A program made the translations under genes and the position numbers. From a virus (taxonomy: Duplodnaviria; Heunggongvirae; Uroviricota; Caudoviricetes), in the IMG/VR virus record IMGVR_UViG_2703718808_000018, positions 1 to 12,452 of that record: a DNA stretch of 12,452 bases. One strand, given 5' to 3'. This document shows, one piece after another, positions 7,259 to 12,452 of this stretch. The notes beneath the pieces were generated by a model, which did no database searches, was not told the origin of the DNA, and worked only from the letters and a program-made list of their open reading frames with translations. Positions within the stretch are counted from its first letter, which is position 1, and the number at the start of each line of letters is the position of its first letter.

Positions 7259-7667
7259 ACACATCCGTATGGCGATGAATGCCTGGGCATATCCTGATGG
7301 TGAGAAAGTTCCCGCAGCTGAAATAGCCCGGACTTATTTCGAGCTGGGGATGACGTTCCCGGAACTGTACGACGACAGCCATCCGGAAGCCCTGGCTCGT
7401 AATACCCAGAAAATTTTCCGCTGGGTGGAGAAGGACACGTCTGATGCTGTTGAAAAAATTCAGGCGCTGTTACCGGCGATCGAAAAGGCGATGCCGCCTT
7501 TGCTGGTGGCCCGTATGCGCAGTCACAGTTCTGAATATTACCGGGAGATCGTCGAACGACGGGATCGGCTGGTGAAAGATGTGGATGATTTTGTCGCTGT
7601 AGCGATCGCCTGGGGCACCCTGACTAACAGTGGTGGTCAGCCTGGTAATGCTGTTGTTGTGCATTGA
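7242..7667 (+). CDS. YdaT-like protein (Rac prophage family)
   Basis: 141-aa ORF starting MKIKHEHI..., which matches the N-terminus of Rac YdaT as I remember it. It overlaps the end of the cro-like gene by 17 bp. Confidence 0.75.
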   Translation: MKIKHEHIRMAMNAWAYPDGEKVPAAEIARTYFELGMTFPELYDDSHPEALARNTQKIFRWVEKDTSDAVEKIQALLPAIEKAMPPLLVARMRSHSSEYYREIVERRDRLVKDVDDFVAVAIAWGTLTNSGGQPGNAVVVH

Positions 7668-7735
7668 CCAACAATATTTATACCGGATTTCTTCCGGAAG
7701 TTCGTGGGTAAAGTTCGGTATCAGAAGAGGTGAGT

Positions 7736-8767
7736 ATGGCTAATGCCTGGCTCAGATTGTGGCATGACATGCCAAATGACCCCAAGTGGCGAACGATTGC
7801 CAGGGTATCAGGACAGCCAATCGCAACAGTGATGGCAGTGTATATCCACCTTCTGGTGAGCGCGTCACGAAATGTCACGACATGTCACGGCGTGTCACTA
7901 CGTGGTCACATTGATGTCACGACGGAAGATTTAGCAAGTGCGCTTGATGTGACGGAAGACGTAATTGATTCAATTTTGCATGCAATGCAGGGGCGGGTTC
8001 TGGATGGTGACCTTATTTCCGGATGGGAAAAACGTCAGGTGCTGAAAGAGGACAATGGTAACGTTTCGCAAACGGCAAAATCCCCGGCAGAGCGTAAGAG
8101 AGCGCAGCGGGAGCGGGAAAAGCTGCGGAAACATAATGCTGATTGTCACGATGAGTCACGACGTGTCACGCATCTGTCACGACAAGTCACGACAGATAAA
8201 GATACAGATACAGAATTAAACCCCACACATAACGCGCGCGAGAGTATTCCGACCAGTGAGTCGAATGGTGCGCCGTTGCAGACAGCCGAACCTGAATACC
8301 TGGACGGCCTGAGCGAACCGATCGGGAAATTTTCGATGACTACTGTCTGGCAGCCGTCGCCGGATTTTCGACAACGGGCAGCAGTGTGGGGTATGGCTCT
8401 GCCTGAGCCGGAGTTTACACCTGCTGAGCTTGCCGCATTCCGGGATTACTGGATGGCGGAGGGGAAGGTTTTCACGCAGGTTCAGTGGGAGCAGAAATTT
8501 GCCCGTCACGTGCAGCACGTCAGGGCACAGGTAAAACCAGTCAGCAAGGGGGTAAGCCATGCAGCATCAGGTGGCACGGCATCACGGGCAGTTCAGGAAA
8601 TCCGGGCAGCACGCGAACAGTGGGAACGTGACAACGGATTTATCAGCAACGGAAACGGCCTGGAAGCTGTGGGAGCTTATGGGGGAGGTGTATTCGAACC
8701 GCTGGACTCAGAAGAACGGGGCCGCACCTTCGAAGCTCTGGATTGCCCAGATTGGTGCGATGACTGA
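7736..8767 (+). CDS. Replication initiation protein (lambda O-like role; YdaU/DUF1376-type N-terminus, DnaT-like C-terminal region)
   Basis: ATG at 7736 with AAGAGG upstream (the ORF track starts at GTG 7730). The N-terminus AWLRLWHDMPNDPKWRTIARVSG is typical of DUF1376 prophage replication proteins. The gene contains two clusters of phased direct repeats (candidate iterons) and is followed by a P-like gene. Confidence 0.8.
   Translation: MANAWLRLWHDMPNDPKWRTIARVSGQPIATVMAVYIHLLVSASRNVTTCHGVSLRGHIDVTTEDLASALDVTEDVIDSILHAMQGRVLDGDLISGWEKRQVLKEDNGNVSQTAKSPAERKRAQREREKLRKHNADCHDESRRVTHLSRQVTTDKDTDTELNPTHNARESIPTSESNGAPLQTAEPEYLDGLSEPIGKFSMTTVWQPSPDFRQRAAVWGMALPEPEFTPAELAAFRDYWMAEGKVFTQVQWEQKFARHVQHVRAQVKPVSKGVSHAASGGTASRAVQEIRAAREQWERDNGFISNGNGLEAVGAYGGGVFEPLDSEERGRTFEALDCPDWCDD
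7863..7921 (+). repeat. Iteron-like cluster 1: six direct copies of GTCAC(G) at 10-11 bp phasing
   Basis: GTCAC starts at 7864, 7874, 7884, 7894, 7905 and 7916, all in the same orientation and inside the initiator ORF. Confidence 0.6.
8144..8191 (+). repeat. Iteron-like cluster 2: five direct copies of GTCACG at 10-11 bp phasing, followed by an A+T-richer stretch
   Basis: GTCAC starts at 8145, 8155, 8165, 8176 and 8186, followed by GATAAAGATACAGATACAGAATTAAA. This is about 280 bp downstream of cluster 1 within the same ORF. Confidence 0.6.
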
Positions 8768-9221
8768 ACAGCAAATCCGTCTGGTCTGCCGTCAGTGCAT
8801 GGACCGCTGCCGGGCGGGTGAAACGTGGCCCCCGGACCTGGCTGAGTTTGTTGCGCTGATTTCGGAGAGTGGGGCAAATCCATTTGGTCTTACGGTGGAT
8901 GCAGTGATGGAAGAGTACCGGCGCTGGCGCAATGAATCCTGGCGATACGACGGGAGTGATAAATACCCGTGGCCACAGCCTGTGCTGTACCACATCTGCC
9001 TCGAAATGCGTACCAGAGGGATTGAGCGCCAGATGACGCAGGGTGAGTTAAAACGACTTGCGGAACGGCAACTGACGAAATGGGCAAAGCATGTTGGTAA
9101 CGGGATGAGTGTTCCGCCAGTGCGACGACAACTGGAAGGGGCGAAACACCCGCAAGGGCCAACGCCAATTGAACGGCTGAAACAGGAATACGAACGCCGG
9201 AAGGCAGCTGGTTTTATTTGA
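8760..9221 (+). CDS. Replication protein P-like (DnaB helicase loader)
   Basis: The C-terminal two thirds align with lambda P as I recall it (PPDLAEFVAL / YPWPQPVLYHI / ELKRLAERQL versus lambda PSPGQFVAWC / YPWKSNAHYWL / ELRRKAADEL). Stop at 9221 is firm; start is uncertain. ATG 8760 overlaps the initiator stop (ATGACTGA); the same frame is open back to ATG 8679 and ATG 8559, which would give a lambda P-like length but a ~200-bp overlap. Confidence 0.7.
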   Translation: MTEQQIRLVCRQCMDRCRAGETWPPDLAEFVALISESGANPFGLTVDAVMEEYRRWRNESWRYDGSDKYPWPQPVLYHICLEMRTRGIERQMTQGELKRLAERQLTKWAKHVGNGMSVPPVRRQLEGAKHPQGPTPIERLKQEYERRKAAGFI

Positions 9222-9254
9222 ATCTGAGAAACGATTTTGTCGGAGGAAATTTTA

Positions 9255-9971
9255 ATGGAAACTGTATTTGACGCACTGAAAGCACTGAAAAGAGCCTCTT
9301 CACAGGTAGTGGCGGCCCGCCTTGGAATCAGCCGTGAAGATGCGGTCAACGAACTGTGGAAACTGAAGCGCCGCGGTGAAGCGGATAACAAGGGTTCGAT
9401 GTGGTGGCTGATTCAGGCTGGTGAAAGTGAACCGGTGTCACCGGTACCGAAAGTGACAGCGCAAATGCTGATTAAGGCGATTGAACAACATGGCCCACAA
9501 ACGGCAGATGAGCTGGCACTGATGTTCGGGATTACCTCCCGCCGGGCGAATTCATCGCTGGCCATGGCAATCAGCAAAGGGCGTCTGATTCGCGTGAATC
9601 AGGGCGGTAAATTTCGTTACTGCATACCGGGCGCTGATTTACCGGCAGAGCCGGAAGCTGCATCCGTAGCGGAAACAGATGGTAAAGCCTTTCCTCAGCC
9701 AGCAGGTGTTGCGTTACCAGTCCGGGAAACGACGACACAGGAAGAAATGAAAACAGAAATCGTGGAAGACATTGTGAAGTTACAGCCATCGGTCACCGAA
9801 ACGAAAGCAGATGACCTGATTCTACCATCGCTGCATGTGGCTAACCGCGAGCTGCGCCGGGCAAAAGGTCAGGTTCAGAAGTGGGAGCGTGTCTGCGCCG
9901 CGCTGCGGGAACTGAACAAACACAGGGATATTCTCCGGGATATTACCGCCACCAGAGAGCTGCTGCGGTGA
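9255..9971 (+). CDS. Winged-helix DNA-binding protein with two tandem wHTH-like modules and a C-terminal coiled coil (hypothetical)
   Basis: ATG at 9255 with GGAGG 8 nt upstream (the ORF track starts at TTG 9237). Residues ~1-55 and ~75-135 look like two repeats of a helix-turn-helix plus wing, and the C-terminus ([33 protein letters not shown]) is predicted helical. Confidence 0.75.
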
Positions 9972-10285
9972 GTGGCTGGAAGAAGTGGCGCTGGGCGGAA
10001 ATTATGATACTCCGGCAGTGTGCGGGAACGATGACAGTCGAAAGCATCGGCAGTCTGATTGGCCGTAGTGGGGCTGCCGTCAGGACGAAAGCGCGGGAAC
10101 TGGGTATCTGCATGATGTTACGGGGTGATTATCACCAGTCAGCCAAATGTTCACAGCGTGATATTGAGCTGGCGCGGCAACTGCATCAGCGTGGCGTACC
10201 CCGACGGGAAATTGCCGAAAAGTTTGGGATGAAGTTGGGCGCAGTGAATAACTACGTTTATTTCGACAGGAGGGTTCAGGCGTGA
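9968..10285 (+). CDS. Small putative DNA-binding protein (HTH-like segments), hypothetical
   Basis: Proposed GTG start at 9968 overlaps the preceding stop (GTGA); alternative ATG at 10004. The ORF track's start at 9881 lies inside the previous gene. C-terminal [19 protein letters not shown] is HTH-like. Stop at 10285 is firm. Confidence 0.55.
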
Positions 10286-10587
10286 GGGTGAGAATTTATA
10301 TCGCCGGTCCGATGACGGGATATGAAAATTTCAACCGTGAGGCGTTTCACAAGGCGGAAGAAGCACTGAAACAGGAAGGGCATACCGTATTAAATCCCGC
10401 AGTACTTCCGGACGGGCTGACTCAGCCACATTACATGGATATTTGCATGGCAATGATTCGTTGTGTGGATGCGGTTTATATGCTGAAAGGCTGGCAGCGG
10501 TCGGCAGGCGCTAAGGCAGAGCTGGCACTGGCGGAGAAACTGGGGCATGCAGTTATTTTCCAGGAGGCAACCAGTGAGCGAAATTAA
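10282..10587 (+). CDS. DUF4406-like (nucleoside 2-deoxyribosyltransferase-like fold) protein
   Basis: GTG start overlapping the preceding stop (GTGA), with AGGAGGG 7 nt upstream. The N-terminal IYIAGPMTG motif and overall size fit the DUF4406 small Rossmann-like proteins common in prophage nin regions. Confidence 0.75.
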   Translation: MRVRIYIAGPMTGYENFNREAFHKAEEALKQEGHTVLNPAVLPDGLTQPHYMDICMAMIRCVDAVYMLKGWQRSAGAKAELALAEKLGHAVIFQEATSERN

Positions 10588-10734
10588 TTACCAGGAACTA
10601 CGGCAGGTGAAAGAGAAAGCATAATCCAGAACTGAATAATTAAAATCAGCACTGTAAATAAAATTTAATCCTTAACCGGAGGGATTCCTGCACCCTCAGA
10701 ACATCAGGAGACCGCCCGGCAGGGCGGTAGTGAA

Positions 10735-10917
10735 ATGCGAAAGTTCAAAATAATTATTGAAACGGGAATCGCCGGTGGAGATTTCGAGGATGAATTCGAA
10801 GTGAATGATGATGCGACGCCTGATGAAATTCATAACGAAGCAAAAGAAATTTTCTTTAACTACTGCAATTACTCATATCACGAAATAAAAGACGAAGAGG
10901 AAGAACAAAATGGCTGA
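10735..10917 (+). CDS. Hypothetical very acidic small protein (60 aa, about 18 D/E versus 5 K/R)
   Basis: ORF with ATG at 10735. An AGGAG (10706-10710) is separated from the ATG by a 7-bp GC-rich hairpin (10711-10728). The ORF lies inside a segment bounded by 23-bp direct repeats. Confidence 0.5.
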   Translation: MRKFKIIIETGIAGGDFEDEFEVNDDATPDEIHNEAKEIFFNYCNYSYHEIKDEEEEQNG

Positions 10918-11086
10918 TTTTGGTTCAACTAAATACAACGTCAGTTTTGAAGAATGGCATGAACTGTTAATGGACTATGCAGAGTTACGTGGTGGCAGTG
11001 CTGCTGATGCTGAAGCATGGCGTGATGATTATGAAGCAGGAAAAACTCCGGTCGAAGCATATTGTGATGAGTGGGGCGATGAATGA
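10910..11086 (+). CDS. Hypothetical very acidic small protein (58 aa; MADFGSTKYNVSFEEWHELLMDYAELRGGSAADAEAWRDDYEAGKTPVEAYCDEWGDE), below the ORF-track cutoff
   Basis: Hand-translated. ATG at 10910 overlaps the stop of the previous acidic ORF (ATGGCTGA); GAAGAGG lies upstream; stop TGA at 11084-11086. Confidence 0.45.
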   Translation: MADFGSTKYNVSFEEWHELLMDYAELRGGSAADAEAWRDDYEAGKTPVEAYCDEWGDE

Positions 11087-11517
11087 GCGAGATTAATTAT
11101 CAGGAAGGGCATGAAACGGCTGGTCAGCCAACTGAAAAAAGCGAAGCCGGACTGCAAATTACCGGATAAGGCGATGGACTACCTGAAGCGAAACGGACTG
11201 ATAAACGAGGAGAATATTTTACGATGACCTGGCCTGAAGCGTTCATAACGGTAGGAATTGCAATGGCGGTGGCGCTGGTGGTGTATTCGATTTGCCGCTG
11301 GGGATAAAAACGGTTTGCGGGGAAAGAAGAGTTAAGTAGAATTGCTGCGGGTGCTTGAGGCTGTCTGCCTCGGGCATGCCGACGTAAGGCAGACAGAGAA
11401 AAGCCCCAGTTAACATTATGCGTCTTGCAGGACGCTTAACATTAATCTGAGGCCATATCTATGACTTGCACACTTAGATTAGCCTCTTATGCGCCGAAAG
11501 GCAAGGAGCAGCAGGCT

Positions 11518-11673
11518 ATGAAGCAGCAAAAGGCGATGCTAATCGCCCTGATCGTCATCTGTATTACCGTCGTTGTAACGGTAGTGGTAACGAGGAAAGA
11601 CCTCTGCGAGGTACGAATCCGAACCGGCCAGACGGAGGTCGCTGTCTTCACAGCTTACGAATCTGAGAAGTAA
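11518..11673 (+). CDS. hokD: Hok/Gef-family type I membrane toxin (HokD/RelF-like)
   Basis: 51-aa product MKQQKAMLIALIVICITVVVTVVVTRKDLCEVRIRTGQTEVAVFTAYESEK has the Hok/Gef signature: one transmembrane helix, then ...TRK.LCE.R.R.G..EVA.F.AYES.K. ATG at 11518 has AAGGAG upstream; the ORF track's longer form from 11461 is an in-frame upstream extension. Confidence 0.85.
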   Translation: MKQQKAMLIALIVICITVVVTVVVTRKDLCEVRIRTGQTEVAVFTAYESEK

Positions 11674-11741
11674 GAGACCCGGCGAGGGAGAAATCCCTCG
11701 CCACCTCTGATGTGTCAGGCATCCTCAACGCACCCGCACTT

Positions 11742-11768
11742 AACCCGCTTCTGCGGGTTTTGTTTTTT
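11742..11768 (+). terminator. Rho-independent terminator downstream of the hok-like gene
   Basis: AACCCGC-TTCT-GCGGGTT (7-bp stem) followed by TTGTTTTTT. A perfect 9-bp GC-rich hairpin with a GAAA loop (GGCGAGGGA-GAAA-TCCCTCGCC, 11681-11702) precedes it, just after the hok stop. Confidence 0.65.
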
Positions 11769-11839
11769 CCTGGCATTCTGGTTTACAATTCGCACGCCGG
11801 CCTGAACAACTGGCACCTGCTGTGTCACCGGAGAACCCG

Positions 11840-12112
11840 ATGGCGCAACGTATAAAATCCCACAATTCTGAAGCCGTCCCGGCCATTAAGCGGGGGCGGC
11901 ATTCGCACGTATTTAAAACCGACTGGTACCAGCATCCCCCATGCACTGAAGAACAGGCCGAATGGCTGATTCAGTGTTACCGCAGGCGCGGATACGAGGT
12001 TAAGAAAGCCATCAGCCTCGATTATCGTCACTGGATAATCTCTGTCAGGCTCCCTTATTCCGAACATCCACCGCGTCCGTCCCGCACATTCCAGCAACGT
12101 ATCTGGAGGTAA
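11840..12112 (+). CDS. Hypothetical protein (90 aa)
   Basis: ATG at 11840 with GGAG 7 nt upstream (the ORF track starts at GTG 11822); stop TAA at 12110-12112. Basic protein with no recognised domain. Confidence 0.55.
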   Translation: MAQRIKSHNSEAVPAIKRGRHSHVFKTDWYQHPPCTEEQAEWLIQCYRRRGYEVKKAISLDYRHWIISVRLPYSEHPPRPSRTFQQRIWR

Positions 12113-12113
12113 C

Positions 12114-12452
12114 GTGCGGGTATTACTTCGACCTGTTCTGGTGCCGGAACTTGGCCTGGTGGTCCTTAAGCCCGGACGCGAATCACTGCCTGTTTTTCAT
12201 TGCGGCAGGGTGCTGGTGGAGCCGGAACCGAAAAACATGCGCGGTCTGCCGTCCGGAGTCGTTCCTGCCGTTCGCCAGCCGCTGGCAGAGGATAAAACAT
12301 TACTGCCATTTTTCAGCGATGAGCGGGTTATTCGTGCAGCAGGTGGTGCAGGTGCACTGTCTGACTGGTTATTACGTCACGTGAAATCCTGCCAGTGGCC
12401 ACACGGCGATTATCATCACAGCGAAACAGTCATTCACCGTTATGGTACCGGC
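12114..12452 (+). CDS. Hypothetical protein, 3'-partial (runs off the window end)
   Basis: Frame open from GTG 12114 (GGAGG just upstream) to the window end, 113 codons with no stop in my hand translation (MRVLLRPVLVPELGLVVLKPG...CQWPHGDYHHSETVIHRYGTG). Not in the ORF track because it is incomplete. Confidence 0.4.
   Translation, partial: MRVLLRPVLVPELGLVVLKPGRESLPVFHCGRVLVEPEPKNMRGLPSGVVPAVRQPLAEDKTLLPFFSDERVIRAAGGAGALSDWLLRHVKSCQWPHGDYHHSETVIHRYGTG

Follow-up and report, generated by a model that had tools for sequence, protein, structure and literature searches.

Remnant ead/Ea22-type gene starts probably flank two intact acidic genes in a mosaic region of a lambdoid Escherichia coli prophage

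Two small and strongly acidic genes in a phage genome are bracketed by a short near-direct repeat, which raises the question of whether the repeat marks the insertion of a mobile cassette or has some other origin, and of what the two genes might do. The genes, ORF60 and ORF58 (open reading frames, ORFs, encoding 60 and 58 amino acids, aa), lie in IMG/VR virus record IMGVR_UViG_2703718808_000018, a member of the Caudoviricetes, of which positions 1 to 12,452 were analysed (this whole stretch of 12,452 nucleotides, nt, is called the window below). The original prediction read the repeat as an ancestral gene start that was duplicated when the pair was inserted, and the pair as a possible moron or as DNA mimics acting against host defence. 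We instead hold, with good confidence, that the locus consists of remnant ead/Ea22-type starts flanking two real acidic genes in a lambdoid mosaic region.

The repeat itself was easily recovered. The 23-mer TGAGCGAAATTAATTACCAGGAA is found in the window at 10575-10597 without a mismatch and at 11084-11106 with two mismatches (21/23 identical), and nowhere else, with a spacing of 509 base pairs (bp) between the copies. In 200 dinucleotide-preserving shuffles no match to it was found when up to three mismatches were allowed, giving a chance expectation of 0, and the similarity of the two copies extends to 32 nt at 81% identity. Copy 1 begins a short ORF (10574-10622) that encodes VSEINYQELRQVKEKA and then a stop, and copy 2 begins one (11083-11169) that encodes MSEINYQEGHETAGQPTEKSEAGLQITG and then a stop, so that the shared peptide start described in the prediction is there. 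The description of what lies in between is also borne out: about 0.5 kb with two coupled ORFs of 60 and 58 aa, which overlap by 8 nt (ATGGCTGA) and have net charges of -13 and -12, with isoelectric points of 4.1 and 4.05, respectively. The stop of ORF58 in turn overlaps the next ATG, at 11083, as ATGA.

What does not stand is the origin proposed for the repeat. The 23-mer is the family-wide 5' end of ead/Ea22-type genes, comprising the first 8 codons and the stop-start overlap, since the motif is carried by lambda ea22, by the gene STLIN_13 and by at least 121 sites in IMG/VR. The lambda gene begins GTGAGCGAAATTAACTCTCAGGCA (peptide VSEINSQALREAAEQ), matching each repeat copy at 19 of 23 positions, and its start reads GTGAGCGAAATTAAC.... 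STLIN_13 (L008; L numbers are our handles for the sequences compared) is a full ead/Ea22-like gene that follows a DUF4406 gene; its product has 232 aa, matches PF13935 with E=2.9e-39 and starts VSEINYQALREAAEKAT. The same AGGAGGCAACCA-GTG junction precedes this gene and copy 1. The copy-1 ORF is 88% identical to the 5' end of L008, with 12 of 16 residues matching between VSEINYQELRQVKEKA and VSEINYQALREAAEKA, and copy 2 has the first 8 residues in common with them.

The degenerate-motif scan of IMG/VR placed the sites in at least 120 contigs. Among the IMG/VR matches listed, to which the counts here refer, 95 begin ead-like ORFs, mostly of 109-392 aa, with two being stubs of 15 and 23 aa, and the ead-like starts follow at least 12 different ends of upstream genes. 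A further type of ORF, SEINYQEGHE..., begins at 24 matches, and these 'EGH' starts have an ATG start codon and the end of ORF58 directly 5' in 24/24; 2 matches have the identical 16-codon stub of the window. The ORFs at both repeat copies contain the N-terminal ead/Ea22-like (PF13935) segment. The remaining Ead_Ea22 domain, a central coiled coil of about 139 profile positions, is missing from them, as they end after 16 and 28 codons. It is known that ea22 genes are mosaics in which a common N-terminal segment is followed by unrelated C-terminal domains (PMC10834534).

To follow how the two flanking starts lost the rest of their genes, the surroundings have to be laid out. The window belongs to a lambdoid (Rac/Stx-like) prophage of E. 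coli O178:H19, of which it forms the early-right accessory region, and its sequence is 100% identical to the prophage of strain 2012C-4431 (NZ_CP024289), in which the RefSeq labels at the locus read DUF4406 / DUF7167 / hypothetical / Hok. We read the features as follows.

10282..10587, plus strand: DUF4406 gene, the upstream neighbour (PF14359, E=3.4e-37; RefSeq WP_072095369.1); its last 14 nt overlap the copy-1 ORF.
10574..10622, plus strand: ead/Ea22-type start remnant of 16 codons that holds copy 1 (likeness to L008 and lambda ea22).
10620..10734, plus strand: tail of a lost 118-aa Zn-ribbon gene (phrog_1621) and a conserved intergenic junction (homology to L004-L007 and L009).
10735..10917, plus strand: ORF60, DUF7167, 60 aa, net charge -13 (PF23768, phrog_1997).
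10910..11086, plus strand: ORF58, 58 aa, net charge -12, of an unnamed family (C-terminal part of phrog_519; homologue in CBA120 orf183).
11083..11169, plus strand: truncated 5' part of a phrog_660 gene with ead-type first 8 codons, holding copy 2 (relatives in L004 and L005).
11111..11227, plus strand: leftover C-terminal part of that phrog_660 gene, out of frame (it matches the C-terminal end of the 171-aa protein of L005).
11349-11673: complete hok/mok/sok type I toxin-antitoxin locus just downstream (sok, RF01794, 113 bits, 11349-11523; mok ORF, 11461-11673).

Both flanking genes are deletion-reduced remnants, and the two acidic genes between them are intact. An undeleted arrangement can be seen in the Stx2a phage ArgO145, where the order is ead/Ea22-like gp18, 118-aa Zn-ribbon gp17, 70-aa acidic gp16, DUF7167 gp15, ORF58 gp14 and ead/Ea22-like gp13, and where gp18 and gp13 have 266 bp in common at 91.7% identity and in direct orientation. 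Several E. coli prophages (L004-L006 and L022) have an order of this type after DUF4406. The 70-aa gene (net charge -7, phrog_4659) stands directly 5' of DUF7167 in some relatives including ArgO145 (L006 at 2643-2855, L144 at 3286-3498), inserted inside the intergenic junction. The window lacks the body of the left-hand ead gene as well as the Zn-ribbon gene. At the left joint, homology to the ead 5' end runs to about 10621, and from 10620 onwards the sequence is homologous to the final codons of the Zn-ribbon gene and to the spacer downstream of it, as found in L004-L007 and L009. This joint is also present in two IMG/VR contigs (93% identity) and in phage 666R9 (83%), all of which have a different gene after the ATG equivalent to 10735, and a 16-aa stub identical to that of the window is found in L042 and L138.

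On the right side, the copy-2 gene has relatives of 119-171 aa that start MSEINYQEGHE (L004 and L005). It belongs with phrog_660 (E=4.2e-75) and has only its first 8 codons in common with ead genes; the full-length 171-aa relative in L005 has no match in Pfam. In the window this gene carries a frameshifting deletion of 371 bp at an AAACGGC microhomology. The locus is 371 bp longer (1127 vs 756 bp) in 28/30 of the best E. coli genomes, with the deletion in the source strain and EH41 only. By this comparison the deletion looks recent, because EH41 is the only other carrier among the best E. coli matches.

The same relatives bear on what moves between genomes. The travelling block is 10620-11126/11131, or 10704-11104 in Stx2a phages, with copy 1 outside and copy 2 inside. 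The proposed duplication of an ancestral gene start fails on this exclusion of copy 1, as it does on the motif being the 5' end of the ead/Ea22 family. An insertion with duplication, or frequent recombination between the repeats, would be expected to yield empty sites. The predicted empty-site junction (a GTG-type copy into GAAGG) had 0 matches in IMG/VR. A chimeric empty-site query of 5,426 complete E. coli genomes gave split matches at its best 30 places, all of which have the cassette. Comparing related prophages for the presence or absence of exactly the repeat-bounded segment thus gave no empty site in IMG/VR or at those 30 places. The repeat is real, yet it carries no insertion signature.

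Both ORF60 and ORF58 are genuine genes and are subject to purifying selection. ORF60 matches PF23768 (DUF7167) with 51.6 bits (gathering cut-off 24.4) and E=1e-13 over profile positions 1-60, and phrog_1997 with 1.4e-29. Its RefSeq label is 'DUF7167 family protein', and divergent DUF7167 members of Klebsiella, Phapecoctavirus and Enterococcus phages can be aligned with it. ORF58 has no Pfam family and matches the C-terminal part of phrog_519. An exhaustive HMMER search gave it 65 representative relatives at E<=1e-3, in which F13, W16, W37, Y41, G44 and P47 are conserved. The ratio of nonsynonymous to synonymous polymorphism (pN/pS), a crude value from collected alleles compared with the window, is about 0.13 for ORF60 and about 0.10 for ORF58. 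On these ratios and on the family conservation we discarded the possibility of spurious ORFs. Among 5,426 complete E. coli genomes, 1,909 (35%) carry the pair, 1,750 of which hold at least 80% of it, and a class of the pair with about 90% identity, in degraded prophages, has internal stops.

AlphaFold2 models ORF60 as a beta-beta-alpha-beta fold with a disordered acidic tail (predicted local distance difference test score, pLDDT, 79) and ORF58 as a three-helix bundle (pLDDT 87.6). Acidity, taken from charge counts only, is a conserved trait of both families. In the ORF58 family the net charge has a median of -10 (range -4 to -15), and 13 positions have at least 60% D/E. Six diverse DUF7167 members have net charges of -7 to -16, and the acidic C-terminal tail is present in 5/6 of them, the most divergent (L147) being the one that lacks it.

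How the region could have been assembled is suggested by its junctions. An AGGAG lies at 10704-10708, 27 nt from the ATG of ORF60, and between the two is a 7-bp GC-rich hairpin, ACCGCCC-GGCA-GGGCGGT (10710-10727), in both the minimum free energy and the centroid folds. If formed as modeled, this hairpin would shorten the distance between the AGGAG and the ATG to about 8 nt. The junction at 10704-10734 is found, with G-U-preserving changes, ahead of other genes in L002, L009, L042 and L138 (at least three different genes), and may be a structured element for translation initiation as well as a junction. From these comparisons we are inclined to see the ead 5' end and the hairpin junction as shared patches of homology where neighbouring genes are exchanged. 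Three things lead us there: many different genes occur upstream of the motif, an unrelated gene gained exactly the first 8 codons of ead (the 24/24 'EGH' starts among the IMG/VR matches listed), and at least three different genes come after the 10704-10734 junction. Lambdoid phages would then swap adjacent genes by relaxed homologous recombination at the ead 5' sequence and at neighbouring junctions, and the presence of many different genes on either side would follow from the shared patches. Relaxed homologous recombination is known to generate mosaics, and has been shown experimentally between lambdoid phages and defective prophages (PMC3945230, PMC2327257).

The expression of the two genes can be judged from their arrangement. 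Stop-start overlaps link ORF60, ORF58 and the downstream stub, and also link DUF4406 with the copy-1 stub; a spacer of 112 nt (10623-10734) parts the copy-1 stub from ORF60. A simple consensus scan of the plus strand at 10200-11740, which is a weak test, predicted neither a sigma-70-like promoter nor an intrinsic terminator. In Stx2a phages the gene block lies in the early-left ea-type region and is likewise early. Most likely, ORF60 and ORF58 are made from the early lytic transcript by read-through of the early rightward operon, and not from the repressed prophage, because they have no predicted signals of their own and belong to a stop-start coupled chain. Production in the lytic phase would be the opposite of a moron. 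The moron reading was rejected because the consensus scan gave no promoter or terminator and because the genes belong to a coupled chain within the early operon.

Both families reach well beyond lambdoid prophages. Relatives of ORF58 were found by tblastn in 198 phage records, including virulent Ackermannviridae of Escherichia, Salmonella, Klebsiella, Shigella and Serratia (orf183 of CBA120 is an example). Relatives of DUF7167 were found in 127 records, including Phapecoctavirus, a Guernseyvirinae Klebsiella phage and Enterococcus Herelleviridae. That virulent phages carry both families speaks for a function in the course of infection. ORF58 homologues of Enterobacter, of Ackermannviridae and of metagenomic contigs are without a DUF7167 neighbour, and DUF7167 homologues in ESCO5, EF24C and two Klebsiella phages are without an ORF58 neighbour. 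An obligate pairing of the two families was rejected, as homologues of one mostly lack the other as a neighbour. The bacterial sequence L147 (GCA_017743015.1, CP072455.1; 43% GC) has, at 2501-2860, an ORF58-like gene (40% identity), a 9-nt gap and a divergent DUF7167 gene (32 bits), in an order reversed relative to the window and with RecE/RecT-like, DUF3268 and Dam genes as neighbours. The reversed pair is a hint of a functional link between the families.

Three further occurrences were noted. In four metagenome contigs from JGI (L015-L018), a 38%-identical ORF58 homologue lies directly 5' of one or two genes for SocA_Panacea, an antitoxin-type domain; this is a neighbour of the ORF58 homologue in one contig family only. 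In two unrelated contigs (L146 at 873-1632, L148 at 1950-2674) an ORF58-family gene lies directly 3' of a stand-alone Rv2179c-like gene. Actinobacillus phage vB_Apl-pPE4 (PP818812.1, 11316-11815), whose recorded host is Actinobacillus pleuropneumoniae, also has the cassette, with a nucleotide identity of about 92-94% to that of E. coli prophages. A phage of Pasteurellaceae would not be expected to carry the cassette, and its presence points to a prophage derived from E. coli or to a misassigned host.

The window carries the genes of a lambdoid prophage in the order integrase, an 809-aa protein, a ParE/PaaA2 pair, a cI-like repressor, YdaS-like and YdaT-like genes, DnaT-like and P-like replication genes, DUF1627, a small DNA-binding protein, DUF4406, the repeat-bracketed region and hok/sok. 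In the last of these, hok is nested in the mok ORF and RefSeq gives it as Hok/Gef family. The ParE toxin (PF05016) and PaaA2-type antitoxin (PF21217) genes, at 5970-6448 on the minus strand, adjoin the cI-like repressor gene (6476-6877). The 809-aa early-left protein (1419-3848, minus strand) has a C-terminal Rv2179c-like 3'-5' exonuclease domain, ahead of which is about 620 aa of acidic sequence without a domain match.

We turn now to what the acidic proteins may do. Our tentative proposal is that ORF60 and ORF58 each encode a small, folded, acidic product which, in lytic growth, would bind a nucleic-acid-binding protein of the host or of a rival and block it. The two would act early in infection as putative counter-defence or host-takeover inhibitors, and an anti-defence role is plausible. 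A 2026 preprint shows that one lambdoid accessory locus with ead/Ea22 encodes a true anti-defence protein, the OLD inhibitor Oad2, a relative of P22 EaE that in some cases is fused to EaD/Ea22, and its authors term such loci anti-defence hotspots (doi 10.64898/2026.07.10.737580). Oad2 is not homologous to ORF60 or ORF58. PADLOC returned no match for ORF60, ORF58, DUF4406 or the phrog_660 protein, and a defence or toxin-antitoxin module was rejected for want of a profile match. No papers were found on DUF7167, PF23768 or the RefSeq accessions. A bolder form of the proposal, which we regard as rather doubtful, is that DUF7167 and the ORF58 family each represent a hitherto unrecognised class of very small acidic inhibitors of phage origin, nucleic-acid mimics or decoys. 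In lambdoid phages the two would act jointly, either on a host defence that targets DNA or RNA or on a DNA-binding protein conserved in the host. If this were true, the reach of DUF7167 from E. coli to Enterococcus phages would imply a broadly conserved bacterial target.

Other explanations have to be set beside this proposal. The proteins could modulate phage development or host physiology, through the bias between lysis and lysogeny or through replication, recombination or transcription factors, and not serve counter-defence at all. This possibility, which we also hold only tentatively, likens them to the lambda exo-xis proteins (Ea8.5, Orf60a, Orf61, Orf63) or to T7 Gp2. The presence of the families in strictly virulent phages speaks against a function specific to lysogeny, and the fold match to Gp2 is no better than that to dozens of unrelated small folds. 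Arginines of T7 Gp2 are functionally important, and ORF60 differs in having a single arginine, R2, at its N-terminus.

A specific form of the DNA-mimic idea, that ORF60 and ORF58 are a pair of the Ocr/ArdA type that sits in the DNA-binding groove of restriction-modification or similar defence enzymes and so protects incoming or induced phage DNA, we consider unlikely. It draws on the net charges together with acidity and many acidic positions conserved in both families, on the place of the genes in the early operon, on the occurrence of both families in virulent phages, on the recurrence of the pair in reversed order in the distant L147, and on a type of locus known to hold anti-defence genes (doi 10.64898/2026.07.10.737580). 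However, likeness in sequence, profile or fold to Ocr, ArdA, Arn, Ugi, p56, gp5.9 and anti-CRISPR mimics does not rise above a generic level, ORF60 and ORF58 are half the size of the classic mimics, the families mostly occur singly, and finding DUF7167 in both E. coli and Enterococcus phages speaks against a target with the strain specificity of a type I restriction-modification enzyme.

Least of all can we credit a mobile cassette or moron that carried the acidic genes into an ancestral gene start and duplicated about 23 bp in the manner of a target-site duplication: near-identical 23-mers do bracket both ORFs, and the GC content of the bracketed segment is 0.40 vs 0.49-0.56 in the flanks, but the 23-mer is a family-wide gene start that heads different genes at its two copies, all 24 'EGH' starts among the matches listed come after ORF58, the mobile block is not bounded repeat to repeat, the flanks in ArgO145 are whole genes with 266 bp of homology, no empty site was found in IMG/VR or at the best 30 E. 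coli places of the chimeric query, and no promoter or terminator was predicted.

Several of the results weigh against the account that we prefer, of remnant starts around two real genes that may encode inhibitors. The copy-1 joint is, to judge from its 83% identity in 666R9, old, so that to speak of a 'deletion in this lineage' would oversimplify the history of copy 1. The sequence of deletion and recombination events comes from comparison and carries no dates. The lack of a promoter and terminator is the outcome of a simple consensus scan. Adjacency of the two families is confined to the E. coli lambdoid cassette and the distant L147, and since the families are usually apart they are not an obligate pair. 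A BFVD fold search found uncharacterised phage proteins only, and sequence and profile searches of PDB, NCBIfam and PADLOC gave no match for either protein. Many small early phage proteins are acidic and yet are not mimics.

Structurally, the locus is ordinary lambdoid mosaicism, with ead/Ea22 starts and junctions beside shuffled small genes and with deletion scars. It offers a worked example of how a short "flanking repeat" can mimic the signature of an insertion when in fact it consists of what is left of paralogous gene starts. The pair are well-motivated and cheap candidates for counter-defence or host-takeover screens, because they are intact and under purifying selection, are found in roughly one in three complete E. 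coli genomes, Stx2a-converting phages among them, and have families that occur in virulent phages. A positive screen would give a function to a Pfam DUF and to an unnamed family.

Comparison with known systems helps to place each part of the locus. The small alpha/beta inhibitors T7 Gp2 (which acts on RNA polymerase), T4 Dmd and AcrIE2, all from phages, score as many unrelated folds do and show no sequence relationship. Ocr (T7 gp0.3) and ArdA are alike in the strong negative charge on a small early phage protein and in acidity conserved in the family, but the proteins of the window are about half the size, are without sequence or fold similarity to them, and are likened to them by charge count alone. 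ORF60 is a member of DUF7167 (PF23768)/phrog_1997, yet this membership explains no mechanism. With the Ead/Ea22 family (PF13935, IPR025153), lambda ea22 included, the likeness is direct, as both copies are (V/M)SEINYQ... starts and copy 1 has the upstream junction of full family members. The difference is that neither copy heads an Ead/Ea22 protein in the window, copy 1 being a 16-codon stub only and copy 2 an 8-codon ead start on an unrelated phrog_660 gene that is itself deleted. Finally, although the joint role of these sequences here comes from comparison, the locus resembles the module-boundary homology and relaxed recombination described for lambdoid phages (PMC3945230, PMC2327257), in that short conserved sequences lie at gene borders with differing genes on either side.

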